The notes under the pieces were generated by a model. That model saw only the letters and a list, made by a program, of their open reading frames with translations. It was not told where the DNA came from and did no database searches. Below, piece by piece: positions 19,007 to 60,591 of a stretch of 63,092 nt of DNA. The DNA is taken from the NCBI GenBank assembly GCA_002402375.1, contig DHFT01000047.1, positions 1 through 63,092 on the forward strand, given 5' to 3'. Position 1 is the first letter of the stretch. Each line of letters begins with the position of its first letter. The DNA is from Elusimicrobia bacterium UBA4817. Its GTDB lineage: Bacteria > Elusimicrobiota > UBA8919. The position numbers and the translations under genes were made by a program.

Positions 19007-19147
19007 CACAGATAACAGTATTGCTGTCATTCTGAGGACGAAGTCCGAAGAATCTCGAAACAAATCAGATGTTTCGCTAACGCTCAGCATGACATCTTGC
19101 ATTATCTGTGTTCATCGGAGCCTGCCCCCGAGTGATTTTATCGGGGG
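19007..19147. repeat. Compound palindromic repeats filling the modA-modB gap
   Basis: Nested stems: CACAGATAA(19007)/TTATCTGTG(19102) and GTCATTCTGAG(19026)/CTCAGCATGAC(19083). A second hairpin follows: CCCCCGAgtgattttaTCGGGGG (19125..19147). Confidence 0.65.
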
Positions 19148-21764: not shown

Positions 21765-23810
21765 ATGGGATTTATTTTTGTCTTTCCGTTTTTTCTTTTT
21801 TATCTTTTTACTCTTCATCCTGTCGTTTCGGTCGGCGACAGCGGGGAACTTATTACTGCCGCATATACGCTCGGTATTGCTCATCCGCCGGGTTATCCGC
21901 TTTGGACAATTCTCGGCAAAATTTTTACCGTAATAATTCCGTTCGGAAACATCGCCTATCGCGTCAATTTGATGAGCGCATTCTTCGGCGCTTTGACCTG
22001 CGGAGTTGTGTATCTGATACTACAAAAAATGGGAGACGGGAGACGGGAGACGGGAGACGGAAAACCTTTTACCTTTTACCTTTTACCTTTTACCGCTGTT
22101 CTTTGTCTGGTTTTCTCAAAAACATTCTGGTCGCAGGCGATAATTTCCGAGGTCTACACGCTTAACGCATTTTTTGTTGTTTTGATTATCTACTTACTAC
22201 TTACTACTTACCACTTACCGCTTACCGCTTTTATCTACGGACTTTCACTTGCCAATCATTACATTATGTTTCTTTTCGGTCCGGTTTTTGCGTTTTATGT
22301 AATTTGGAAAAAACCCGAGATATTCAGTATTAAAAACATTTTGTCGCTTTCGGCATTTTTTATTCCCGGACTTTTTTTATATTTTTATCTACCGATTCGC
22401 TCGTCGGTAAATCCGCCGATTGACTGGGGCAATCCCGAAAATCTTAAAAATTTTATCGCTCATATCGGAAGATTTCAATACAAAGGACTTGAAATGGCGG
22501 CAAAGGTCGGATTTGCGACTAAACTTCTGTTTGTAAGAGATTTTTTCAGTCAGTTGGTAGAAAATTTCGGATTATTTACAGTTCTTTCCGTTTTCGGACT
22601 TGTGAGTTTAATTAAAAAAGATTTTAAATTTGCTATGCTTACTATTTTAATTTTTTTGGCGAATACGTTTGGGTTGATAATTCTGCTCAATTTCAAATTC
22701 ACGCCGCAGGATATTGACGCTTTTACTCCGTATTATATTCCCGCATGGATTATGGTTGTGCTCTGGGCGGGTTATAAAATAATAGAATGGCGGAATGTAA
22801 GGTTTTTTCTGCCGATAGTTTTTGTGGTGCTGGCTTTTTATGTGTATCAAAACAGCAAAAGCGGCCTGCCGAGATATAATTTTGTTGCTTACGATTATCC
22901 GGTTAATATGTTAAAAACCGTCGAGAAAAATAACACTCTGTATTTGCATGAAGAGGTTGATGAAACCATTTTTACGCTTTCTTATCTGAAAAATGTTCTT
23001 AAAAAGAGGCAGGACATTACAATAGTTGACTCATATAACAATATATTTTTATCAAAAAATATTGACGGTAAATCAAGAGTTTATTACTCTGCAGTTAATA
23101 CGGCGAAAATAAACAAGCCGCTTTATTTGAACGGGCTGTTATGGACAGAACAAAAAGGAACGAACAAAAATATCTTGGATTTTTATGTAGTTCGCGAGTT
23201 GCCAAAAAAATACGAATACAGGGAGCAGGAAGTTATTGCCCGATATTCTTATTTTTACGGAAAATTTTTAATTGATTCGGGGAACATAAAAGACGGAATT
23301 TTTGAATTAAAGAAATCGCTAAAAGCCGGGCCCGAACTTATCTGGCTTTACAATAATGTTGGCGATATTTTAAGGCAACAAAAGGATTACGAAAGTGCGT
23401 TGCATTCTTTAAGTCATGCAATTTCGCTTGATTCTTCATATTCGGCTGCTTATTACAATCTCGGGCTTTTATATTCAGAGAAAAAAAATGATGAGCAGGC
23501 AATTGAATATTTTCAGAAAGCATACCGGTATGATAAAACGGATGAGGATTCGCTTAAACGGATTTCCAAAATTTATCAGAAAAAGGGCTATGAAAATTTT
23601 GTCGGCGGTAAAACGGAAGATGCAATCGCTGAATATAAGAAAGCGATTGAGTATACACCGTCGTCCGCCGATATCTATTATAACATAGGCGTGATTTATT
23701 CGCAATTGCAAAACAAAAAAGAAGCGAAAAATTATTTCCAAAAATACATTCAATTAAAACCGGGAGGCACAAATGCGGAAACAATTAAAAAGTGGCTGGC
23801 AAACAATTAG
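21765..23810 (+). CDS. DUF2723-type polytopic membrane protein (glycosyltransferase-C-like) with C-terminal TPR repeats
   Basis: N-terminus ...VGDSGELITAAYTLGIAHPPGYPLWTILGKIF is typical of DUF2723. Multiple TM helices and C-terminal TPR units (AYYNLGLLY, IYYNIGVIY). Confidence 0.7.
   Translation: MGFIFVFPFFLFYLFTLHPVVSVGDSGELITAAYTLGIAHPPGYPLWTILGKIFTVIIPFGNIAYRVNLMSAFFGALTCGVVYLILQKMGDGRRETGDGKPFTFYLLPFTAVLCLVFSKTFWSQAIISEVYTLNAFFVVLIIYLLLTTYHLPLTAFIYGLSLANHYIMFLFGPVFAFYVIWKKPEIFSIKNILSLSAFFIPGLFLYFYLPIRSSVNPPIDWGNPENLKNFIAHIGRFQYKGLEMAAKVGFATKLLFVRDFFSQLVENFGLFTVLSVFGLVSLIKKDFKFAMLTILIFLANTFGLIILLNFKFTPQDIDAFTPYYIPAWIMVVLWAGYKIIEWRNVRFFLPIVFVVLAFYVYQNSKSGLPRYNFVAYDYPVNMLKTVEKNNTLYLHEEVDETIFTLSYLKNVLKKRQDITIVDSYNNIFLSKNIDGKSRVYYSAVNTAKINKPLYLNGLLWTEQKGTNKNILDFYVVRELPKKYEYREQEVIARYSYFYGKFLIDSGNIKDGIFELKKSLKAGPELIWLYNNVGDILRQQKDYESALHSLSHAISLDSSYSAAYYNLGLLYSEKKNDEQAIEYFQKAYRYDKTDEDSLKRISKIYQKKGYENFVGGKTEDAIAEYKKAIEYTPSSADIYYNIGVIYSQLQNKKEAKNYFQKYIQLKPGGTNAETIKKWLANN
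22032..22094 (+). repeat. Tandem heptamers (GGGAGAC)x4-GGAAAAC-(CTTTTAC)x4 inside the DUF2723 CDS
   Basis: Read directly. 63 nt (9 heptamers) keeps the frame and encodes GDGRRETGDGKPFTFYLLPFT. Confidence 0.9.
22191..22229 (+). repeat. Tandem heptamers (YRCTTAC)x5 inside the DUF2723 CDS
   Basis: CTACTTACTACTTACTACTTACCACTTACCGCTTACCGC encodes LLLTTYHLPLT. Confidence 0.9.
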
Positions 23811-24927
23811 ATGGAAGCGGGAAGTAGGAAGCGGGAAGTTGTTAAAATCTGTACTACTTACTACTTACTACTTACTACTTACTACTTACGGTCTTTACTG
23901 TCAAACGACGATTTCTTATCCCGTATATTTATGTGAATCCGGCAATCCCGACGACTACCGGCTTTTTGCCAATGGCGGCGGTTGGGACGGCTTCTGGTAT
24001 GTCGGATATAACAGGGTTTGGATAGAAAAAATATTCATACCGGAACATTTTTCAGATTACAAAAAAATTTTTATCGGAGCCAAACTCGGACGGATGAAAT
24101 CAAGACAACTTTATGAAAATGGAAAAGCCGTCCTTGACAAAGAAGCAATTCCGGGTGATATTTTTATGGCCGTGTCATCAACACCTTCGTGGAAAAAAAC
24201 AAACTGGAAATTTTTGACGACTACCAACGATATTCCTTTTGAAGGTGATAATGAACTTGCCATTGAGCAGGTCGGCGAATCCCGATGGTTTTGGGCTGAA
24301 GTTCGGTCGGACGAAATAAATTTCGGCGGTGAAAATTATATTGCACTCTGGTCAACATCCGCCTATCTAACAGATTCTTCAAATAGTCCAATAATTGCTG
24401 CTGCATGGGGTAATAAGAACGCAAATAGTTTTATCAATGATGAAATAAAAGGCGTCCCGCCGCAACATTACAGTACCACAACACTTAAATCGCCGATAAC
24501 CGTTTTTGAACCGGCCATCGCAATAAAATTCGTTCCGGAATTATCCCAGAATATAACGGTCGGGTTAATGGGCATAACGGATGGTGAAAATCTCACCGAA
24601 AAAAAAGTAATTTATGCTTCCGTGATTGCCAACGAAATCCAAAAGGTCTGGCTTGAAATTTCCCAAGACAATAAAATTTGGAAAAAACACAGTTTAATTT
24701 TTTATACTTCGCCGTATATATTTTCGCTAAATCCTAAAAAATTATCGGTGGATATTGGATATGAAAATAAAAACCGCGCCGCTTTCCCGCTTTTTATTCG
24801 GGTTTGTGCAACCGACATCTGGGAAAATACGGGACGAAGCCCGTCTCTTAAACTTTTTATAGTTGACCCATCCCTTCCTGAAAAGTCCTTAAGGAAGAGC
24901 GGGGTTGACAAAAAGCGAAAAAAATGA
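23773..24927 (+). CDS. Hypothetical exported protein (start uncertain)
   Basis: Long ORF whose hydrophobic N-terminal segment (LLKSVLLTTYYLLLTTYGLY) is encoded by a heptamer array. No recognisable domain. Confidence 0.5.
   Translation: MRKQLKSGWQTIRWKREVGSGKLLKSVLLTTYYLLLTTYGLYCQTTISYPVYLCESGNPDDYRLFANGGGWDGFWYVGYNRVWIEKIFIPEHFSDYKKIFIGAKLGRMKSRQLYENGKAVLDKEAIPGDIFMAVSSTPSWKKTNWKFLTTTNDIPFEGDNELAIEQVGESRWFWAEVRSDEINFGGENYIALWSTSAYLTDSSNSPIIAAAWGNKNANSFINDEIKGVPPQHYSTTTLKSPITVFEPAIAIKFVPELSQNITVGLMGITDGENLTEKKVIYASVIANEIQKVWLEISQDNKIWKKHSLIFYTSPYIFSLNPKKLSVDIGYENKNRAAFPLFIRVCATDIWENTGRSPSLKLFIVDPSLPEKSLRKSGVDKKRKK
23813..23890 (+). repeat. Tandem heptamers (GGAAGYR)x4 then (TACTTAC)x5 at the 5' end of the exported-protein ORF
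   Basis: GGAAGCGGGAAGTAGGAAGCGGGAAGT ... TACTACTTACTACTTACTACTTACTACTTACTACTTAC read directly. Confidence 0.9.
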
Positions 24928-25639: not shown

Positions 25640-25993
25640 ATGTTCAGAATAATGGCAAAGTCAAAAATACAGTTGGCAAAAGTTACGGGCAAAAATCTGA
25701 ATTATCTCGGTTCCATAAAAATTGACAGAAAACTTATGGACCTTGCCGATATTTATCCTTATGAAATCGTGCTGGTCGTTAACAAAACCACCGGCGCCAG
25801 ATTTGAAACATATGTGCTTGTAGGCAAAAAGAACTCAGGATGCATTGAATTAAACGGCGGCGCTGCGCGGCTGGGTGAAGTCGGCGACGAGCTTATAATT
25901 ATTTCTAATGAGTTTGTAGAGGAAGAAAGAGCAAAAAAATACAAGCCGAAGATTGTTTTTCTTGACGAAAAAAACAGACCCGTAAAAAAATAA
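25640..25993 (+). CDS. panD: Aspartate 1-decarboxylase (pyruvoyl-dependent)
   Basis: MFRIMAKSKIQLAKVTGKNLNYLGSIKID with the Gly-Ser self-cleavage site. GGAGGGGG RBS before the ATG at 25640. Confidence 0.85.
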   Translation: MFRIMAKSKIQLAKVTGKNLNYLGSIKIDRKLMDLADIYPYEIVLVVNKTTGARFETYVLVGKKNSGCIELNGGAARLGEVGDELIIISNEFVEEERAKKYKPKIVFLDEKNRPVKK

Positions 25994-25996
25994 ATA

Positions 25997-26145
25997 TCGC
26001 TCACAAGCAAATTTGTCGGAAAAGTCCCTAAAGGGATTCCCTTTGGTCACTCATCCGACCACCCTGTCGGATTTCGTTCTAATCGTTGCTCTTGAAAGCG
26101 AAGTCGCTCCTCAAGGTTCCTTACAAATTTCTTGCTTCGCTCTGG
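25997..26145 (+). repeat. R120-family repeat, longer variant (copy 3)
   Basis: Shares both arms (TCGCTCACAAGCAAATTTG ... CAAATTTCTTGCTTCGCTC) with the other copies. This explains the spurious N-terminal extension of ORF 26013. Confidence 0.7.
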
Positions 26146-26153
26146 AAAAAAGA

Positions 26154-27521
26154 ATGAAGAAAATAAACCTTCTTATAAAAAACGGAACGCTTGTAACTGC
26201 CGAAAAAATTTTTAATTCGGACATTTTTATTTCCGGAGAAAAAATTATAGAAATCGGAAGAATACGGTTCCGGAAAAATTGCAAAATTATAGACGCGAAA
26301 AATAAATACGTTTTTCCCGGTATTATAGATGCTCATACCCACTTCGGTCTTGAAGCATATAGTTCCAGAACTTCCGATAATTTTTTAAGCGGTACAAAAG
26401 CCGCCGCGGCCGCCGGAATTACGACAATTATTGATTATGCAATTCCTCAAAAGAACGAGACGATGCTTGCTTCTGTAATACGCCGAAAAAAAGAAGCCGA
26501 AAAATCATACATTGATTATTCTTTCCATTCGCAGATTGTCAACTGGACAGAGCAGAGCCAAAGTGATTTTAAGAAACTCGTCTCCGGTTATGGCATTAAA
26601 TCGTTTAAGGTTTTTATGCCGAAAACGGAGGGCTGGGGGGTCGGCGATTACGAACTGCTGAAAATTTTGGAAGCATCAAAAAAATATCACACCATTATTG
26701 AAGTTCATGCCGAAAGCAGCCCTCTTATAGACGGCTTTGTTAAAACTTTTGTTGACCGCAAAAAAACGGCAGTTTCAAATTTTTATTATACAAGACCGAA
26801 CATTGCGGAAGAAGAAGCGGTAAATCGCGCGGTATTTTTGGCGGACAAATCCGGCGGAAATCTTTATGTTGTTCACACAACATCGGAGGGAACGTTGAAA
26901 ATTGCCCATGCGGCACAAAAAAGAGGCGTGAATGTTACCATTGAAACCTGTCCGCAATATCTTATTCTGAATAAAAAAGTTTTTGAAAAAAAGGACGGGT
27001 ATCTTTTTGCGACTTGCCCGCCCGTAAAATTACCGTCGGATAATAAAGCGTTGTGGGAAGGGCTTAAAAATGGAACGGTGAAAACGGTTGCGACCGACCA
27101 CTGCGCATTTTCAAAAAAAGATAAGCAAAAGGCAGAAAATGATTTCAGAAAATTAAGGTTCGGTATGCCGGGTGTTGAAACATTGTTCCCGGTTTTATTT
27201 TCAGAAGGCGTTGTGAAAAAAAGAATAACGCTGAAAAAACTTGCCCAGGTGACGTCTCAAAATCCCGCAAAAATTTTCGGGTTGTATCCTAAAAAAGGCT
27301 GCATAAAAACCGGCAGCGACGCCGATTTGACAATTTTTGACCCGAAGATAAAGTGGCGGATTGATTACAAAAAACTTTATAATACAAACTGCGGCTGGAA
27401 TCCTTATCAGAATATGAAAATTACGGGTAAACCGGTTATGACTCTGCTTCGCGGAAAAATAATTTATGATAACGGCAAATTTATGTCGGACAGCGGTTAC
27501 GGGAAATTTTTGAAAAGATAG
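26154..27521 (+). CDS. Dihydropyrimidinase / D-hydantoinase (cyclic amidohydrolase)
   Basis: IDAHTHF metal motif, GITTIIDYA, carbamylated-Lys context GIKSFKVFM, TDHCAF. Start set at the ATG at 26154, downstream of the repeat. Confidence 0.85.
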   Translation: MKKINLLIKNGTLVTAEKIFNSDIFISGEKIIEIGRIRFRKNCKIIDAKNKYVFPGIIDAHTHFGLEAYSSRTSDNFLSGTKAAAAAGITTIIDYAIPQKNETMLASVIRRKKEAEKSYIDYSFHSQIVNWTEQSQSDFKKLVSGYGIKSFKVFMPKTEGWGVGDYELLKILEASKKYHTIIEVHAESSPLIDGFVKTFVDRKKTAVSNFYYTRPNIAEEEAVNRAVFLADKSGGNLYVVHTTSEGTLKIAHAAQKRGVNVTIETCPQYLILNKKVFEKKDGYLFATCPPVKLPSDNKALWEGLKNGTVKTVATDHCAFSKKDKQKAENDFRKLRFGMPGVETLFPVLFSEGVVKKRITLKKLAQVTSQNPAKIFGLYPKKGCIKTGSDADLTIFDPKIKWRIDYKKLYNTNCGWNPYQNMKITGKPVMTLLRGKIIYDNGKFMSDSGYGKFLKR

Positions 27522-27533
27522 GAGGAGAAGAAG

Positions 27534-30128
27534 ATGGCTGAAAAATCTGTTTATGACGGGCTTTATTTAACGGATGCACAACTGAAAAACGAATTTGCAA
27601 AGTGCGAGTTCTGCGAGGAAAAACCATGTATGACGGCTTGTCCCTGCAACTGCTCCGCTGCCGATTTTATTATGGCCTCCAGGGTTTTTGATAAATCGGA
27701 TATAAAAAGGTCTGCCGCACAAATAATGAAAAACAATCCGTTCGGCGGTGTCTGCGGAATGGTCTGCCCGGACAGGTTTTGCGTTGCCGCCTGCGTTCAT
27801 AAAAAATTTGATTCACCCGTCAACATTCCTGCCGTTCAGGCGACGATTATAAAAAAAGCCAGAGAGTCGGGCGGGATTGCCGAATTTACAAAACCGCAGC
27901 CGAACGGAAAAAAAGTTGCAATAATAGGCGCTGGCCCGGCCGGATTAGGTGCCGCATCCGTTCTCGGTTCTCTCGGTTATAAAGTTGACATTTACGAAAA
28001 AGAAAATTTTGCCGGCGGAATGTGTAATCTTATTCCGGAGTACCGTCTTGAAAAAAACATGCTTAAAGAGGATTTAAAATTTCTAATATCACTCGGTGAT
28101 ATAAACATAAAATTAAATTCAGAGATAGAAAATCCGGAAATTTTGCTGAAAAAAAAATATGAGGCAATTCTTGTTGCGACTGGTTTAACAGAGCCGATAA
28201 AAGCGGGTATTAAAAATGAGGATTTTGCAATTGTCGGATTAGATTATCTGAAAAACCCGAGAAAATATAAACTGAAAGGAAAAGTTGCAGTTATCGGCGG
28301 CGGTGCAACTGCTGCTGACGCCGCGATGACAGCGAAATCCGTAGGCGGCGCCGAAAGTGTTGAAATGCTCGCTCTGGAAACTGTCGGCGAAATGCCGCTG
28401 ACACAGAGAGAGATGAATGAACTTCTTGAAAACAATATTGAAATAACGGGAAGGCTGCGGGTTACGGCGATTATTAAAAAAGGAGACCATATTTCAGGTC
28501 TTGAGACGGTAAAGGTTTCACTTCCTAAAGGCGTAAAATTTAATCTCAAGGATTTAAAAGAAGTGACGGGCACAAATCAGGTTAGAAATGATATATCAAC
28601 GGTAATAATTGCAATCGGCGCGCGTTCCAAAAGGGAAAAATCTGCTCAACCGTCCGTATTTTATGCGGGCGATTCTGTTCAGGGTCCGACTACTGTCGTG
28701 GAAGCAACCGCTGCGGGAAAAAATGCGGCTTTGAAAATAGATGCATTCGTCAATAAATCCGAAAAACCCGTGATTGAAAAAGAGGTTAAAAGTGATACGG
28801 TACTCAAAGGTTATGTGCATTCTCCCGTATCGCTTGAAACCGACTTTTTCGGCAGAAAAATTTCATCTCCGTTTTTGCTTTCAGCCGCCCCGCCTTCCGA
28901 CGGATACGACCAGATGAAAAAAGCGTACGAGGCGGGTTGGTCGGGCGGAATAATGAAGACCTCGTTTGACAACGTGCCCATTCACATTCCCGGCGAATAT
29001 ATGCATGTATTCAATAATCTGACTTACGGGAACTGCGACAATGTTTCCGGTCATCATCTTGACAGGGTGGTAAAGGAAATTCAGAAATTGGTAAAAGAAT
29101 ATCCCGACCGTCTGACGATGGCATCAACCGGCGGGCCCGTTACCGGTAACGATGAAAATGATAAAAAGGGCTGGCAGTCAAACACGAAAAAACTTGAAGC
29201 GTCCGGCGTAATGGGGATTGAATACTCGCTTTCCTGTCCGCAGGGCGGCGACGGCACCGAGGGTGATATCGTTTCCCAGAATGCCGCATTGACCGCAAAA
29301 ATAATTGACTGGGTGATGGAGGTCGGCGACCCGGAAATTCCGAAACTTTTCAAACTTACGGCTGCGGTGACGTCCATAGTCCCGATTGCCAACGCCATCA
29401 AAAAGGTCTTTACAAAGTATCCGAATAAAAAAGCGGGAATAACTTTAGCGAATACTTTTCCGACGATGTTTTTCAGGACCAGAAAAATGAATTTGCGAAA
29501 TGAGGGACTTCAGTCCCTCGTCAATGTAGCAAATTCAAACCACAATGTAGCCGACACTTCAGTGTCGGTGAGCGAAGCGAATAGATGGGAGGAAGGTATT
29601 ATCGTCGGGATGAGCGGCGAAGGTGTTTTGCCGATAAGTTATCTCACGATTGCCAATGTGTCGTCTCTCGGTGTTACCGTTTCCGGAAACGGCGGGCCTA
29701 TGGATTACAAAGCGGCGATGAATTTTCTTGCACTCGGCGTAAAAACGGTGCAGTTCTGCACTATTGCGACCAAACACGGCTACAAAATTTTTGACGAACT
29801 TGTCAACGGCACCGCTTATCTGATGAAAGAGCGCGGAATAAAATCAATGAAGGAACTTATCGGTATTGCTCTTCCGAAACCGATTACAGGTTTTATGGAA
29901 TTGACGCCGGTAAAAAAAATCTCAACCTGCGATACCGATTTATGTCTTATCTGCGGCAATTGTTCCAGATGTCCTTATCAGGCGATTTCACTTGATAAAG
30001 ACAGACATCCTGTGACGGATGCGGAAAAATGTATCGGATGCAGTATCTGCGTGCAAAAATGTTTCTCCGGTGCGCTGTCTATGCGCGAAAGAACTCCCGA
30101 AGAAACCGCCGCGCTAAAAGAAGATTAG
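27534..30128 (+). CDS. Fused dihydropyrimidine dehydrogenase-like oxidoreductase (GltD/PreT-like FeS-FAD-NAD(P) half, PreA/DHOD-like TIM barrel, 2x[4Fe-4S] tail)
   Basis: N-terminal Cys clusters, VAIIGAGPAGL and VAVIGGGATAAD dinucleotide folds, DHOD-like middle, and C-terminal CLICGNCSRCP / CIGCSICVQKC. Confidence 0.8.
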   Translation: MAEKSVYDGLYLTDAQLKNEFAKCEFCEEKPCMTACPCNCSAADFIMASRVFDKSDIKRSAAQIMKNNPFGGVCGMVCPDRFCVAACVHKKFDSPVNIPAVQATIIKKARESGGIAEFTKPQPNGKKVAIIGAGPAGLGAASVLGSLGYKVDIYEKENFAGGMCNLIPEYRLEKNMLKEDLKFLISLGDINIKLNSEIENPEILLKKKYEAILVATGLTEPIKAGIKNEDFAIVGLDYLKNPRKYKLKGKVAVIGGGATAADAAMTAKSVGGAESVEMLALETVGEMPLTQREMNELLENNIEITGRLRVTAIIKKGDHISGLETVKVSLPKGVKFNLKDLKEVTGTNQVRNDISTVIIAIGARSKREKSAQPSVFYAGDSVQGPTTVVEATAAGKNAALKIDAFVNKSEKPVIEKEVKSDTVLKGYVHSPVSLETDFFGRKISSPFLLSAAPPSDGYDQMKKAYEAGWSGGIMKTSFDNVPIHIPGEYMHVFNNLTYGNCDNVSGHHLDRVVKEIQKLVKEYPDRLTMASTGGPVTGNDENDKKGWQSNTKKLEASGVMGIEYSLSCPQGGDGTEGDIVSQNAALTAKIIDWVMEVGDPEIPKLFKLTAAVTSIVPIANAIKKVFTKYPNKKAGITLANTFPTMFFRTRKMNLRNEGLQSLVNVANSNHNVADTSVSVSEANRWEEGIIVGMSGEGVLPISYLTIANVSSLGVTVSGNGGPMDYKAAMNFLALGVKTVQFCTIATKHGYKIFDELVNGTAYLMKERGIKSMKELIGIALPKPITGFMELTPVKKISTCDTDLCLICGNCSRCPYQAISLDKDRHPVTDAEKCIGCSICVQKCFSGALSMRERTPEETAALKED
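29502..29584 (+). repeat. Hairpin repeat element (family HP-C) inserted in frame in the DPD-like CDS
   Basis: GAGGGACttcaGTCCCTC, then AATGTAGCC-GACACttcaGTGTC-GGTGAGCGAAGCGAATAGA. The flanks are identical to 37165..37209. Confidence 0.8.
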
Positions 30129-33637: not shown

Positions 33638-33684
33638 GAATTACTCAAGGTTCCTTACAAATTTCTTGCTTCGCGCTGCGATTT

Positions 33685-34722: not shown

Positions 34723-36069
34723 ATGCTTACTTTGTTGTGCAATGGGACGGTGATTACGCCGTCTGAGGTAATTGAAAACGGCGGGGTTTTGTTTGAAGAC
34801 GGAGTGATAAAAGATGTGGGAAATACCGACGAGGTAAGAGCAAAAGTTTTCAGAGTTTCAGAGGATAAAATTCAACTGAAAATTATTGACGCCAAGAAAA
34901 AAATAATTCTTCCGGGATTTATCAACACGCACCACCATCTGTATTCCACTTTCTCCCGCGGGATGTATATTCCGGGGACTCCTGCAAAAAACTTTGTTGA
35001 AGTTCTTGAAAAACTCTGGTGGAAACTGGACAGGGTTTTGACGGCGGAAGATATTTATTATTCCTCGTTAATCCCTTTGATTGAATGCGTGAAAAACGGC
35101 ACGACGACAATCTTTGACCATCACGAATCGCAGGAATTCCAGACCGGTTCGCTTGACGAGATTCAAAAAGCAGTGGAACAAATCGGTATCCGCGCCTGCT
35201 TGTGTCTTGGGTCGTCGGACAGATACGGGAAAGGACAGGAAGGGCTTGAAGAAAACGAAAGGTTTTTGTCAAAAATCAAAAATGAAAAACCGGAACTTAT
35301 CGCCGGCATGGTCGGGCTTCATGCACCATTCACCGTCAATAACGATACATTGGAAAAGCATGCCGCTTTGGCGAAAAAATACAAAGTAGGAATGCACATC
35401 CATTGTGCCGAGGACTTGGCTGACGAAAATGACTCCGTTGAAAAATATAAAATGCGCATTGTTGAGCGGCTGAAAAAATTCGGCGCTCTCGGTGAAAAGA
35501 CAATGCTTATTCACTGCATTCACATAGACGAAAAAGAAATGGATATAATGAAAGAAACAAAAACGAATGCGGTGCACAATCCCGAAAGCAATATGAACAA
35601 TGCGGTCGGATGTGCGGATGTTCTTACGATGCTCAAAAAAGGCATTACCGTAGGTCTTGGCACGGACGGGATGTCGTCCGATATGCTTTCGCAGATGAGA
35701 TGCGCGTATCTAATTCACCGCCACAACAAAAAAGACCCGCGGGTCGCTTTCTGCGAAGCCCCGGAAATGCTTTTGCAGAACAATTCAAAAATCGCAGAAA
35801 AAGTTTTCGGAAAAAAACTCGGAAAAATTGAAGTCGGTTCTCCGGCTGATTTGGTTGTTCTTGACTATAACCCGCCTACCCCTTTATCAAAAGACAATTT
35901 CCTGGGACACTTGATTTTCGGGATGGTGGATGCGACGGTGGATACGACAATTTGCAACGGCAGGGTTCTTATGAAAGACAAAAAACTTGAAGGCATAAAC
36001 GAAGAGCAACTCTGCCAGAAATCGCGCGAACTTTCGTCAAAATTTTGGGAAAGAATAAAAAAATTATAA
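34723..36069 (+). CDS. ssnA: SsnA-type putative aminohydrolase (amidohydrolase superfamily)
   Basis: By-eye collinear match to E. coli SsnA: INTHHHLYS, LWWKLDRVL, HAPFTV, HIHCAEDL, VHNPESNMNN, LGTDGMSSDM. Confidence 0.8.
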   Translation: MLTLLCNGTVITPSEVIENGGVLFEDGVIKDVGNTDEVRAKVFRVSEDKIQLKIIDAKKKIILPGFINTHHHLYSTFSRGMYIPGTPAKNFVEVLEKLWWKLDRVLTAEDIYYSSLIPLIECVKNGTTTIFDHHESQEFQTGSLDEIQKAVEQIGIRACLCLGSSDRYGKGQEGLEENERFLSKIKNEKPELIAGMVGLHAPFTVNNDTLEKHAALAKKYKVGMHIHCAEDLADENDSVEKYKMRIVERLKKFGALGEKTMLIHCIHIDEKEMDIMKETKTNAVHNPESNMNNAVGCADVLTMLKKGITVGLGTDGMSSDMLSQMRCAYLIHRHNKKDPRVAFCEAPEMLLQNNSKIAEKVFGKKLGKIEVGSPADLVVLDYNPPTPLSKDNFLGHLIFGMVDATVDTTICNGRVLMKDKKLEGINEEQLCQKSRELSSKFWERIKKL

Positions 36070-36071
36070 AA

Positions 36072-37496
36072 ATGCTTAAATCAAAAGATGTAGTACTTCA
36101 TTATGGCGAAAAGATTTTGTCAGATTTCATTCCGCAAAAAGTGATTGATAACGGGCAATTTTTTCCTCTGATATATCCAGAAAAACTTCCTGTTATCAAA
36201 GATATTGAAAAAAAATTGGAAGATGCGCTTGAAAAACCGGTCGGGGCTCAAAAACCTTTAAGTATTCTCATAAAAGAAAATTACCGCGGCGGCGATTTAT
36301 CAATAATAGTTGACGACCACGACAGACCGAACATCCACACCCGATTGCTTCTTCCTTATCTGGTTGACTTACTACTTACCACTTACCACTTACCACTTAC
36401 TAAAATAAAAGTTGTAATAGCAACCGGCACCCATCGTCCGTCTACCGATGAAGAACTCAAAAATATTCTGGGCATTCAAATGTTCGGCAAGTTGAATTAT
36501 GTAATTCATAAATGCAGGGAAAATAATGTTGAAGCAGGCAAAATTGACGGTTTAACGGTAAAAATCAACGGCACGGTTTTTAATTCCGATATCATAATTC
36601 CGCTGACGGATGTGGAGAACCATTATTTTGCCGGAATCGCCGGCGGGCCAAAGGCAATATGTCCTGGCATTTGCGATATGGAAACGATAACTTACGAGCA
36701 CTTAAAAATGTTCGGCGAGTGCGGGTTCGCACACAACGTTGATTTGGGAAGTATAGATGGCAACCCGGTTTTTGAGACGAAGAAAAAAATCGTAAAGGCG
36801 GTTATTGAGACGCTGAAAAAAAATAAAAGAGAGGTCTATACTATAACTTCAATCATTGATACTGACGGTGATTTGGTCCATCTTTCCGGCGGGGAAACAT
36901 TTGAAAGCCATCTTAGAGCGGCGGAAATTCTAAAAAATGTCTGGACGGTAAATATAAAAGAGCGGGCGGATATTGTTATTTCCGGCGCAAGCCACTGGGG
37001 AGTGAATCTTTACCAGATGGGCAAAGCCACCCACTGCGCATATCACGCCGTTAAAAAAGGCGGAATCGTTCTTAATGTTGCACCGTGCGAGCAAGGTTGG
37101 GGGAACGAAGAATTTAAAAATCTTATGAAGGTGGGGATGAACGAACTCAACAAAACCGACGATAAATGTAGCCCCCGATTTCAATCGGGGGTGAGCGAAG
37201 CGAATAGAATAAAACAAGCGCTGGTGAGCGTTATAAATGCCGTGAAAAAAGATTTTAAGATAGGCAGGCAAAAGCCGGTTGACCTTTTTCAGATACTGCA
37301 TTTTGTCGGGTGGGGGAATTTGCACATAATTCAGGACGGTATTCCCGAAGAAGATTTCAAATTCCTGCCTTTTGTTTTTTGGGGCGATAAATCGGAACCG
37401 GTTGAAAAACGCTTAAAGTCGTGGCTTGAAAAATATCTCGTCGGCAAGACGGTTGCAGTTGTGGATAATCCCAATTTTCTGATAAAACCTGTATGA
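36072..37496 (+). CDS. LarA-like (DUF2088) nickel-pincer-cofactor-dependent 2-hydroxyacid racemase/epimerase homologue
   Basis: IVDDHDRP, IATGTHRP and HYFAGIAGGPKAICPG (Lys in the GGxK tether position). The ATG at 36072 is 3 nt after the ssnA stop. Confidence 0.7.
   Translation: MLKSKDVVLHYGEKILSDFIPQKVIDNGQFFPLIYPEKLPVIKDIEKKLEDALEKPVGAQKPLSILIKENYRGGDLSIIVDDHDRPNIHTRLLLPYLVDLLLTTYHLPLTKIKVVIATGTHRPSTDEELKNILGIQMFGKLNYVIHKCRENNVEAGKIDGLTVKINGTVFNSDIIIPLTDVENHYFAGIAGGPKAICPGICDMETITYEHLKMFGECGFAHNVDLGSIDGNPVFETKKKIVKAVIETLKKNKREVYTITSIIDTDGDLVHLSGGETFESHLRAAEILKNVWTVNIKERADIVISGASHWGVNLYQMGKATHCAYHAVKKGGIVLNVAPCEQGWGNEEFKNLMKVGMNELNKTDDKCSPRFQSGVSEANRIKQALVSVINAVKKDFKIGRQKPVDLFQILHFVGWGNLHIIQDGIPEEDFKFLPFVFWGDKSEPVEKRLKSWLEKYLVGKTVAVVDNPNFLIKPV
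36366..36403 (+). repeat. Tandem heptamers (YACTTAC)x5 inside the LarA-like CDS
   Basis: GACTTACTACTTACCACTTACCACTTACCACTTACTAA encodes DLLLTTYHLPLT, the same peptide as at 22191..22229. Confidence 0.9.
37165..37209 (+). repeat. HP-C hairpin repeat inserted in frame in the LarA-like CDS
   Basis: AATGTAGCC-CCCGAtttcaaTCGGG-GGTGAGCGAAGCGAATAGA. Same flanks as 29523..29586, with a different but still complementary stem. Confidence 0.8.
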
Positions 37497-53373: not shown

Positions 53374-54687
53374 ATGGCACTGTCGGGACTTGATATTTAT
53401 AAACAATTACCTAAAACGAACTGCAAAAAATGCGGGTTCCCGACCTGTCTTGCTTTTGCCATGGCACTTGCCGGGAAAAAAACATCTTTGGATAAATGCC
53501 CGGATGTGACAGCCGCGGCAAAACAATTATTGGAGTCCGCTTCGCTTCCGCCTATGGCGACTATTACAATTGGCGCCGGTGAAAAAAAAGCAGAAGTCGG
53601 CGGCGAAACGGTGCTTTTCCGTCACGAAAAAACATTTTATCATCCGACTGCTATTGCCGTTTCAATTTCAGACAATGAACAAAATCTCTCCGTAAAAATT
53701 GAAAGAATAAAAAAACTGAATTTTGAACGGGTCGGAATAATGGTCGGTATAAATTTAATTGCGATTAAAAATGATTCAAACGATTTGTTAAAATTTTCTG
53801 CTGTTGCAAAAGAGGTTTCCCAAAAACTACAACTGCCTTTGATTCTTATAAGTGAAAATCCTCAAGCAATAGAAGAGGTGTTGAAAAATATATCGCAACT
53901 AAAACCGTTAATTTATTGCGCAACCGAGAAAAATGCCGAACAAATGTTCGGTATAACAAAAAAATATAATGTTCCGCTGTGTGTGTACGGAAAAAATATT
54001 GAAGAAACCGCATCGCTTTCGCAGAAAGCAATCTCTTCCGGCATTAAGGATATTGTGCTTGATTGCGGTTCAAGAGATGTTGCAAAATGCATTCGGGATT
54101 TTACTCAGATAAGACGGCTTGCACTGAAAAAAAATTTCAGACCGTTCGGTTTTCCTATGATTGCATTTGCGGATAATATTGCGGATGCGTCAACATACAT
54201 TACGAAATATGCCAATATACTTGTTGTCCGGATGGATAGTGTTGAGGAAATTCTTCCCTTAATTACGCTTCGTCTGAATATCTATACCGACCCGCAAAAA
54301 CCGATAATGATGGAGCCGAAACTTTATGAAATAGGGAAACCCGACGCTCAATCGCCGCTTTTAGTTACAACAAACTTTTCCTTAACGTATTTTACCGTCG
54401 CGCCGGAAATTGAAAACTCAAAAATTTCCTCTTGGCTTCTTGTTTGCGAAGCGGAGGGTATGTCAGTTTTAACCGCTTGGGCTGCCGATAAATTCAACGC
54501 TGAAATTATTGATGTCTGGATGAAAAAAACTGATGTCGCCGGAAAGGTCTCTCACAAAAAAATAATAATTCCCGGCTATGTTTCCGTATTATCCGGAAAA
54601 CTTGAAGATACAACCGGTTGGCAGGTATTGGTCGGACCGAAAGAGGCATCGGGGATTCCGAAATATCTGAAGGCGGTTTGGAAGTAA
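53374..54687 (+). CDS. acsC: Corrinoid iron-sulfur protein large subunit
   Basis: N-terminal [4Fe-4S] motif CKKCGFPTCLAFAMALAGKKTSLDKCP, TIM-barrel middle and C-terminal B12-binding domain. Confidence 0.85.
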   Translation: MALSGLDIYKQLPKTNCKKCGFPTCLAFAMALAGKKTSLDKCPDVTAAAKQLLESASLPPMATITIGAGEKKAEVGGETVLFRHEKTFYHPTAIAVSISDNEQNLSVKIERIKKLNFERVGIMVGINLIAIKNDSNDLLKFSAVAKEVSQKLQLPLILISENPQAIEEVLKNISQLKPLIYCATEKNAEQMFGITKKYNVPLCVYGKNIEETASLSQKAISSGIKDIVLDCGSRDVAKCIRDFTQIRRLALKKNFRPFGFPMIAFADNIADASTYITKYANILVVRMDSVEEILPLITLRLNIYTDPQKPIMMEPKLYEIGKPDAQSPLLVTTNFSLTYFTVAPEIENSKISSWLLVCEAEGMSVLTAWAADKFNAEIIDVWMKKTDVAGKVSHKKIIIPGYVSVLSGKLEDTTGWQVLVGPKEASGIPKYLKAVWK

Positions 54688-54689
54688 AA

Positions 54690-54809
54690 GTCGCTCGCAA
54701 GCAAATTTCTTTGGTCGCTCCTTTGTAGTCGCTCAAAGAATTTGCTCCTGCAGGGTATAGGTCGCAAATTCAAAACCTGCAGAAATTTCTTGCTTCGCTC
54801 CCTGAGTAA
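54690..54809 (+). repeat. ~120-bp TIR repeat element, copy 4 (family R120)
   Basis: Starts 3 nt after the acsC stop. Collinear with 961..1077. Confidence 0.8.
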
Positions 54810-54826
54810 AAAGGAAAAAAAGTAAA

Positions 54827-60472: not shown

Positions 60473-60591
60473 CGCATCGGAATTTCAATCCGATACTTGA
60501 TTACAATGATAAAAAGAGCGATTACAACGATAAAATCAATGTCCGTTATATCGCTGTAATCAGTGCGACGAAGTCGCTTATCTTGAACATT

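Follow-up and report, generated by a model that had tools for sequence, protein, structure and literature searches.

A GTAG-tagged hairpin repeat within genes and operon junctions of groundwater Elusimicrobia

Repetitive extragenic palindromic (REP) sequences that carry a GTAG tag, the inverted REP doublets called REPINs, and the REP-associated tyrosine transposases (RAYTs) have reportedly been studied as parts of one system. The hallmark of a GTAG-tagged REP is the tetranucleotide GTAG immediately 5' of a short palindrome, and GTAG plus hairpin is what RAYTs (TnpA-REP, Y1 HUH transposases) reportedly recognise. Some REPs are said to lie within genes, notably those for replication and repair. 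Elusimicrobia, to our knowledge, are not among the phyla in which GTAG-tagged REPs have been reported. Here, we describe a GTAG-tagged hairpin repeat in a 63,092-nucleotide contig of Elusimicrobia bacterium UBA4817 (DHFT01000047.1; the whole stretch is called the window below). It lies in frame in two genes for unrelated enzymes, one a dihydropyrimidine-dehydrogenase-like (DPD-like) oxidoreductase and the other LarA-like, and it belongs to a family that recurs elsewhere in the clade.

The Elusimicrobia element is like a GTAG-tagged REP in its unit length of 36-45 nt, in the invariant GTAG that directly precedes an imperfect palindrome on its 5' side, and in having tens of dispersed copies per genome, often between co-directional genes. 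The same core adjoins RAYT genes in other bacteria, and DnaE and UvrC are among the Elusimicrobia hosts. It is unlike a GTAG-tagged REP in that about half of its Elusimicrobia copies lie in genes and in frame, which is, of course, not extragenic. Its 3' tail, GGTGAGCGAAGCGAAT, is conserved and unpaired, whereas the same segment is the hairpin loop of a classic REP (locus L110). Further, its stems are highly diverse within a single genome, more than 90% of the copies point in the direction of the gene, and no RAYT or other transposase was found, with a small home-made hidden Markov model and regular expressions, in the window or in the approximately 300 kb of Elusimicrobia loci that were sampled. 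Unlike REPINs, the Elusimicrobia copies are mostly single, with no inverted REP pair forming one long hairpin.

The initial annotation of the window had offered the Rickettsia palindromic elements (RPEs) as an analogy, and the analogy is a fair one. Reportedly, RPEs too are palindromic repeats in frame in many unrelated genes, essential ones included, where they are translated and apparently tolerated as an extra surface segment. The RPE, at about 100-150 bp, differs in size from the element described here, which measures 38-45 nt in its short form and about 100 nt in its long form. RPEs are, as far as we know, neither GTAG-tagged nor RAYT-linked, and are confined to Rickettsia. The GTAG-tagged REP is the closer known kind.

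Two other systems share part of the picture. Mycobacterial interspersed repetitive units (MIRUs) are said to occupy the intercistronic spacers of operons, oriented as the flanking genes and overlapping the stop and start signals of their neighbours, much as the intergenic copies do here. However, MIRUs are 46-101 bp tandem-repeat units defined by small open reading frames (ORFs), with no GTAG-tagged hairpin, and we know of no report that places them in frame inside genes. The small dispersed repeats (SDRs) of heterocystous cyanobacteria are reportedly mobile hairpin repeats of about 21-27 nt with conserved ends, variable interiors, and presence or absence between otherwise identical sequences. 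They are alike in these respects, but differ in sequence and host, have no GTAG tag, and are mainly non-coding.

The element and its two copies in the window

The unit consists of (A)TGTAG-CC, a variable stem of 6-9 bp, a TTCA or TTTA loop, and GG-TGAGCGAAGCGAAT(AG/AA), with a GCGAAGC mini-hairpin in the tail. In the window, the arrangement AATGTAGCC-hairpin-GGTGAGCGAAGCGAATAGA occurs twice, both times within an ORF and in frame (Table 1), and both ORFs run uninterrupted across their copies. This upholds the earlier claim of a structured repeat in frame in two unrelated enzymes, with slightly corrected coordinates; the start then given for the DPD-like copy, 29523, corresponds to a second, imperfect AATGTAGCA. 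The 18-mer GGTGAGCGAAGCGAATAG of the 3' flank is found exactly 2 times in 63 kb, where 0.04 occurrences are expected, and two or more were seen in 0 of 100 shuffles. The 9-mer AATGTAGCC, taken alone, is unremarkable in frequency in the window.

Table 1. Positions of the two copies, their parts and their host genes in the window
Feature	Position	Strand	Sequence	Evidence
Host gene 1, 864-aa fused dihydropyrimidine-dehydrogenase-like oxidoreductase	27534..30128	+		Pfam, PDB, homologues
5' module of long-form (subtype A) composite, DPD-like gene	29483..29543	+		RNA fold, recurrence in other loci
Outer stem of 5' module, first arm	29488-29496		TGAATTTGC
Inner hairpin of 5' module	29502-29519		GAGGGAC-TTCA-GTCCCTC
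Outer stem of 5' module, second arm	29529-29537		GCAAATTCA
Core module, DPD-like gene	29544..29585	+		covariance model 55.1 bits, E = 9e-12
5' flank, DPD-like core	29544-29552	+	AATGTAGCC
Stem, first arm, DPD-like core	29553-29557	+	GACAC
Loop, DPD-like core	29558-29561	+	TTCA
Stem, second arm, DPD-like core	29562-29566	+	GTGTC
3' flank, DPD-like core	29567-29585	+	GGTGAGCGAAGCGAATAGA
Host gene 2, LarA / DUF2088-like, 474 aa from ATG 36072	36072..37496	+		Pfam, PDB, orthologue alignment, homologues
Short-form (canonical) copy, LarA-like gene	37165..37208	+		covariance model 74.4 bits
5' flank, LarA-like copy	37165-37173	+	AATGTAGCC
Stem, first arm, LarA-like copy	37174-37178	+	CCCGA
Loop, LarA-like copy	37179-37184	+	TTTCAA
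Stem, second arm, LarA-like copy	37185-37189	+	TCGGG
3' flank, LarA-like copy	37190-37208	+	GGTGAGCGAAGCGAATAGA

Both ORFs read the 3' flank in one and the same frame (VSEANR). For the 5' flank the frames differ (NVA versus KCS), as one hairpin is 2 nt longer than the other. Translation of the DPD-like core module gives NVADTSVSVSEANR, and that of the LarA-like copy gives (K)CSPRFQSGVSEANR. The LarA-like copy can alternatively be drawn with a 9-bp stem (GCCCCCGAT / ATCGGGGGT) and a TTCA loop. In a short stem-loop test, fold energies were -13.9 and -17.6 kcal/mol.

The insert in the DPD-like gene is a composite that extends beyond the 43-nt core. Its 5' module and core together span about 103 nt, with an RNA fold of -37.3 kcal/mol (z = -4.7). 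The outer stem of the 5' module has 9 bp. A further hairpin had been noticed ahead of this copy; it is indeed there, nested within a longer palindrome. The linker of the 5' module is AACCAC.

A covariance model of the family, run over the window, returned only the two genic copies and no others. Two intergenic hairpins that had been thought related, at 19125-19147 (CCCCCGA...TCGGGGG) and 60484-60503 (ATCGGA-ATTTCAA-TCCGAT), are stand-alone hairpins at gene ends. As family members they are rejected, since neither flank is present at either and the covariance model missed both. The first of them has the canonical stem sequence in common with the family.

Conservation in the family falls on the flanks, and variation falls on the stem. 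All of the 44 aligned copies have GTAG (G7, T8, A9, G10) unchanged, directly ahead of the hairpin on its 5' side, and most of the tail is invariant in them too. Between near-invariant flanks, 85 copies with at most one stem mismatch hold 41 different hairpins. Their stems remain paired: 675 of 691 pairs are Watson-Crick (97.7%), 10 are G-T, and 6 are mismatches, while arms taken from different copies pair at only 70%. In 67 copies the loop reads TTCA or TTTA; most of the others have TTTCA. The two flanks are not complementary to each other.

A model-based alignment of 60 copies tells the same story. Here, 96.9% of cells pair, against 76.4% when shuffled; both sides have changed in 7 of 9 pairs; and the covariation score is 0.466 against 0.118, a value that 0 of 500 shuffles reach. 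Controls in which the partner is slid collapse. This alignment was fitted to structure, so its figures lean towards structure, and the independent count of 691 pairs agrees with them. The covariation first read from two copies thus holds for the family. It could partly reflect family variants replacing each other at a site, besides compensatory change in place. Wobble pairs favour the GTAG strand by 10 to 1 (p = 0.012), and the GTAG strand is therefore the folding strand, whether as RNA or as single-stranded DNA.

Insertion into host genes and spread of the family

Comparison with orthologues indicates that the segments in both enzymes are insertions, because close orthologues are without them. 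Of the DPD sites, numbers 1 to 3 have empty counterparts in orthologues, as does the LarA site. The LarA segment is missing from more than 50 orthologues, in which the site reads DK-SEG-IKK, and most DPD orthologues are likewise without theirs. Between empty and filled sites, the net gains are 39, 39 and 30 nt at the DPD sites, 90 nt for the DPD-like gene of the window, and 33 nt for its LarA-like gene. These alignments of both hosts contradict an ancestral protein sequence.

The host proteins are ordinary enzymes. The DPD-like protein carries Fer4_20, Pyr_redox_2 and a weak DHO_dh domain (Pfam), and it matches pig DPD (PDB) at 1.5e-47, with query residues 625-690, insert included, left unaligned. 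It is identical to a protein of an Elusimicrobia metagenome-assembled genome (MAG) in the homologue list, and is 864 aa long against a typical 833-834 aa in its orthologues. The LarA-like protein carries Lar_N and LarA_C, with malate and lactate racemases as PDB matches, and has 474 aa against 461-463 aa in orthologues. Its ATG at 36072 is probably the real start, and the TTG at 36045 an over-call.

Where the insert falls in the folded protein can be seen for one of the two. The AlphaFold2 model of the LarA-like protein is confident overall (predicted local distance difference test, pLDDT, 93.2; predicted template modelling score 0.89). Its sole segment below 50 is residues 364-373, the part of the insert that is encoded first, by the hairpin. 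This segment forms a loop between helices 346-363 and 376-393, and VSEANR lengthens the second helix. The insert is thus tolerated as a loop. The earlier placement of both inserts in loop regions stands for LarA. The corresponding model of the DPD-like protein, with a pLDDT of 55, is unusable for placing its insert. Copies within ORFs are translated as a short flexible loop (CSPRxxSGVSEAN). For annotation, this means that recurring CSPRxxSGVSEAN peptides are repeat-derived inserts rather than protein motifs.

Related Elusimicrobia fill other positions of the same gene. Their DPD orthologues have extra CSPR(I/L/F)(H/Q/Y)SGVSEAN peptides at several different positions, three in P0003, one at the site of the window in P0005, and others in P0008, P0016 and P0020. 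Each such peptide is, at the DNA level, a copy of the same element, and the content of inserts is patchy across DPD orthologues of 74-86% identity. A 59-nt variant, in which a second hairpin, CTGCCTGACGGCAAGGCAG, separates the first from the tail, stands three times in frame in one DPD orthologue (L003 1198-1256, 1381-1439, 1930-1988), where it encodes CSPRIHSGLPDGKAGVSGAN; the record is labelled Syntrophomonadaceae.

A pattern scan (TGTAGCC-N10-22-GGTGAGCGAAGCGAA, one genome per species) matched 34 loci, of which two groundwater Elusimicrobia MAGs account for 30. In these two, exact-flank copies number at least 20 and at least 12, and there are diverged copies besides. The same elements are present in independent NCBI, ENA and JGI assemblies. 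The repeat thus has many more copies than the two first seen. More distant genomes hold truncated or decayed remnants (the tail alone, or a degenerate full copy), and few half-decayed copies occur inside the two copy-rich genomes.

Besides the short form, the family has a long form with an extra, larger hairpin module at its 5' end, which is a different hairpin and not an inverted copy. The long form falls into two subtypes with covarying stems. The DPD-like copy of the window is of subtype A, a composite that recurs in L001, L031 (twice), L006 and L034; the covarying subtype B is found in L018, L022, L038, L027 and L035. Oppositely oriented copies occur only in L037 and L038, hundreds of nucleotides apart.

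Location and orientation were tabulated for 49 copies, from the window and the scan loci. They persist in only two places, short operon spacers and ORFs in a frame free of stops. Within ORFs there are 29 copies, 26 sense and 3 antisense, and 21 of the 26 sense copies are over 50 aa away from both ORF ends. The hosts identified by Pfam include ETF-alpha, triosephosphate isomerase (TIM), a class I (Trp/Tyr-type) tRNA synthetase, UvrC, DnaE, FabD, a pyridine-nucleotide oxidoreductase, an AP-endonuclease-2-type protein, and a GlgE-like protein. These genes are mutually unrelated, and several have housekeeping functions.

The remaining 20 copies are intergenic, in very short spacers. The upstream gene sometimes ends at the TAG of the element's ATGTAG. 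The element itself ends 0-17 nt ahead of the next start codon, often with GGAG following, and its GGGGGTGA is similar to the (extended) Shine-Dalgarno sequence GGAGGTGA. The upstream neighbour is co-oriented in 18 of 18 cases, the downstream neighbour in 17 of 19. No split gene or translational bypass was found at the intergenic copies; the flanking ORFs are separate and have their own starts.

Mobile element, host RNA or copied patch

The reading that we prefer, with a probability of roughly 0.6, is that the repeat is a REP-type non-autonomous mobile element, probably mobilised by a RAYT, that has spread into coding sequence and operon junctions of a groundwater Elusimicrobia clade. By analogy with other GTAG-tagged REPs, a trans-acting HUH (Y1) transposase of the RAYT type would recognise the strand with GTAG and hairpin in single-stranded form. 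Under such recognition, the flanks would be preserved along with the capacity for folding, even as stem sequences drift or are exchanged. A strand bias would result as well, seen as a sense-strand bias in genomes whose genes are strongly co-oriented.

The link to RAYTs comes from other bacteria. A metagenome scan recovered the same core in contigs of 50-65% GC; there, TGAGCGAAGCGAA often forms the loop of a conventional REP hairpin. In 4 of 120 metagenome contigs, retrieved by the motif alone, an ORF of the Y1_Tnp / RAYT type lies near the copies. One of these loci, L110, has the classic REP-RAYT-REP layout, again with TGAGCGAAGCGAA as the REP hairpin loop; in L054, two hairpin-type copies precede a RAYT gene by about 110 and 175 nt. 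A borderline RAYT match in the Elusimicrobia locus L027 was rejected as a guanylate kinase.

Relatives of the core take other forms in these metagenomes. The sequence GTGAGCGAAGCGAAC is widespread: many unrelated contigs, for example L048, L062 and L134, have GC-rich hairpins in which it forms the loop (NNNN-GTGAGCGAAGCGAAC-N'N'N'N'), and in L110 (1187-1215, 1846-1875) it is the loop of the REPs on both sides of the RAYT gene. In soil contigs of about 55% GC (L044, L101, L103, L114, L127, L147 and others), the core is part of a larger conserved multi-hairpin unit, ...cagGGCACgacttg-GTAGCC..GCGAA-aaaGTGCCgt..., which is seen in many samples and often adjoins a GGGCTTTAGCCC hairpin. Elsewhere on L127 there is an Acido-Lenti-1 RNA.

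At two orthologous sites, sister genomes hold different variants, one long and one short canonical, with an identical 3' junction, which fits repeated excision and re-insertion at preferred targets. The insertion point lies after an A-rich run, and the flank profile of the copies has AAAWT on one side and TAR on the opposite side as its sole features.

Several observations weigh against a RAYT-borne REP. The copies are mostly single units rather than inverted REPIN doublets, and the search for a transposase in the window and about 300 kb of Elusimicrobia loci came up empty. In L119, a different GTAG REP stands nearer to the RAYT gene, and the RAYT association may partly be mere co-occurrence of REP families. 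The junctions are not seamless; 1-15 nt of host sequence have apparently been replaced, and there is no target-site duplication, which is at odds with the textbook "peel and paste" of IS200-type elements. The LarA site is filled in L159, a relative of 69% identity, by a copy without its hairpin, and is empty in closer relatives; that copy is either a sign of a hot spot or an old polymorphism. Finally, the orthologous copy in the DPD-like gene is far more conserved than the synonymous sites of its host gene. Between the window and L001, 100 of 106 positions of this copy are identical, and 33 of 35 third positions, against 83.4% for the remainder of the gene and 66% for its third positions (p = 1.6e-4). 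A purely selfish relic would not show such conservation unless it had recently arrived or been homogenised.

This conservation leads to the foremost of the alternatives, which we nevertheless consider unlikely. Here, the repeat would be a cis-acting RNA module that serves the host, bound by a factor or by the ribosome, acting in the processing or stability of operon mRNA or in translational coupling, and maintained by purifying selection. A compensatory stem change in the DPD-like copy, from GGGAC/GTCCC to GGGAT/ATCCC (window and L001), likewise speaks for it. The tRNA-synthetase copies of two species differ by a compensatory change from A-T to T-A. Conservation and compensatory changes together reflect either constraint at the level of nucleotides or recent replacement or homogenisation. 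The near-invariant flanks, with so few half-decayed copies in two rich genomes, are in keeping with an RNA module, as are the wobble pairs that favour the sense strand and the fixed intergenic placement between a TAG stop and a start codon, with an element end that resembles a Shine-Dalgarno sequence.

Orientation is a further argument for such an RNA. Sense copies outnumber antisense copies in ORFs 26 to 3 (p = 4.5e-10), even though just 1 of 3 frames is open in sense and 2 of 3 are open in antisense, and intergenic copies share the direction of nearly all their neighbours. However, the genomes themselves are lopsided. In the window, about 45 of 53 long ORFs are on the plus strand, with a single minus block at about 14-22 kb, and GC skew tracks gene direction; in L160 and L161, all genes are co-oriented. 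A replication-strand bias alone would give about 85% sense copies, from which the observed 45 of 49 does not differ (p = 0.12). Gene direction is too uniform in every locus for the orientation of copies to separate a bias of replication from one of transcription.

Other evidence also stands against the RNA module. In high-GC soil contigs, hairpin-type copies of the same core are extragenic and have no orientation bias; location within genes and a preference for the sense strand are therefore peculiar to the Elusimicrobia clade. Patchy presence in close relatives and decay elsewhere imply that no host gene depends on its copy. Rfam has no matching family, and no trans-acting factor was identified. 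A more specific version holds that the host keeps a portable structured-RNA module, built of a stop codon, a hairpin and the Shine-Dalgarno-like GGGGGUGA, in housekeeping genes and operon junctions of the clade under purifying selection, where it would influence the mRNA by coupling or pausing translation, by processing or by binding a dedicated factor, and would be more than selfish DNA. This is, in our judgement, more doubtful still.

An improbable third explanation dispenses with a dedicated transposase. Here, the repeat would spread by gene conversion or by template switching at microhomologies, with correction of quasi-palindromes keeping the arms complementary, so that covariation would be a by-product. 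It accounts for what is awkward for a REP mobilised by a RAYT, namely junctions of variable size at which host bases are replaced rather than duplicated, and loci in which no transposase was found. The LarA target, moreover, is akin to both ends of the element (AAAAT...GGAAGGAAT versus AAAAT...GAAGCGAAT), and a long variant and a short one can take each other's place at a site without any change of the 3' junction. The hairpin-less copy of L159 (11088-11116) lies exactly at the LarA site of the window, with its flanks, AAATGTAG and GGTGAGCGAAGCGAATAGA, precisely joined. But flanks of 9 and 19 nt are short for homologous recombination. RAYT genes adjoin the same core elsewhere, and GTAG with a hairpin is the reported RAYT target. 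Nor does palindrome correction explain why the TTYA loop and GTAG are conserved.

That the copies are stray CRISPR (clustered regularly interspaced short palindromic repeats) repeats, intrinsic terminators, an assembly artefact or ancestral protein sequence is very improbable indeed, as weak sub-threshold Rfam matches to CRISPR repeats are set against solitary copies in ORFs with no terminator-like site at the window copies, recovery from independent assemblies, and absence of the segments from most orthologues. Specifically, Rfam, run on both copies, the whole window and 12 related loci, returned no family, only CRISPR-repeat models below threshold (20.6 and 12.9 bits versus gathering scores of 42 and 45); a CRISPR repeat is rejected, as copies are never in arrays with spacers. 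No intrinsic terminator was called on either strand at either window copy, and the terminator scan lent no support to antisense copies as terminators. A miniature inverted-repeat transposable element is likewise rejected, given the non-complementary flanks, the lack of a target-site duplication and the replacement of some host bases.

The repeat offers a second, independent example of the RPE phenomenon of in-frame palindromic repeats in essential genes, with a much smaller unit, in a poorly studied phylum, and open to being tied to REP/RAYT biology. A REP core of GTAG, hairpin and TGAGCGAAGCGAA is common to distant phyla, but genic and sense in a compact, strongly co-oriented genome, extragenic and unbiased in soil bacteria. 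Should conservation at the nucleotide level within ORFs hold across many copies, the family would further lend itself to the study of selection that acts at once on RNA or DNA structure and on coding sequence.

Other repeats of the window

The window also holds a conserved non-coding motif of about 120 nt, at 949-1063, 25984-26163 and 54678-54821, with a partial occurrence at 33644-33678. The amidohydrolase-like ORF at about 26013, at least, follows it closely. The motif contains repeated GTCGC(T)C boxes and ends in ...TCGCTCACAAGCAAATTT / AAATTTCTTGCTTCGCTC. Rfam gave no match for it. The motif may be a shared regulatory region.

Tandem arrays of 7-nt units occur at 22031-22230, 23813-23889 and 36367-36400, with units GGGAGAC, ACCTTTT, CTACTTA/ACTTACC and TACTACT, some of them in ORFs. 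They are reminiscent of the heptamer repeats (short tandemly repeated repetitive sequences, STRRs) of cyanobacteria. The array within the LarA-like gene encodes LLLTTYHLPLT and is kept in the orthologues of L001 and L004.

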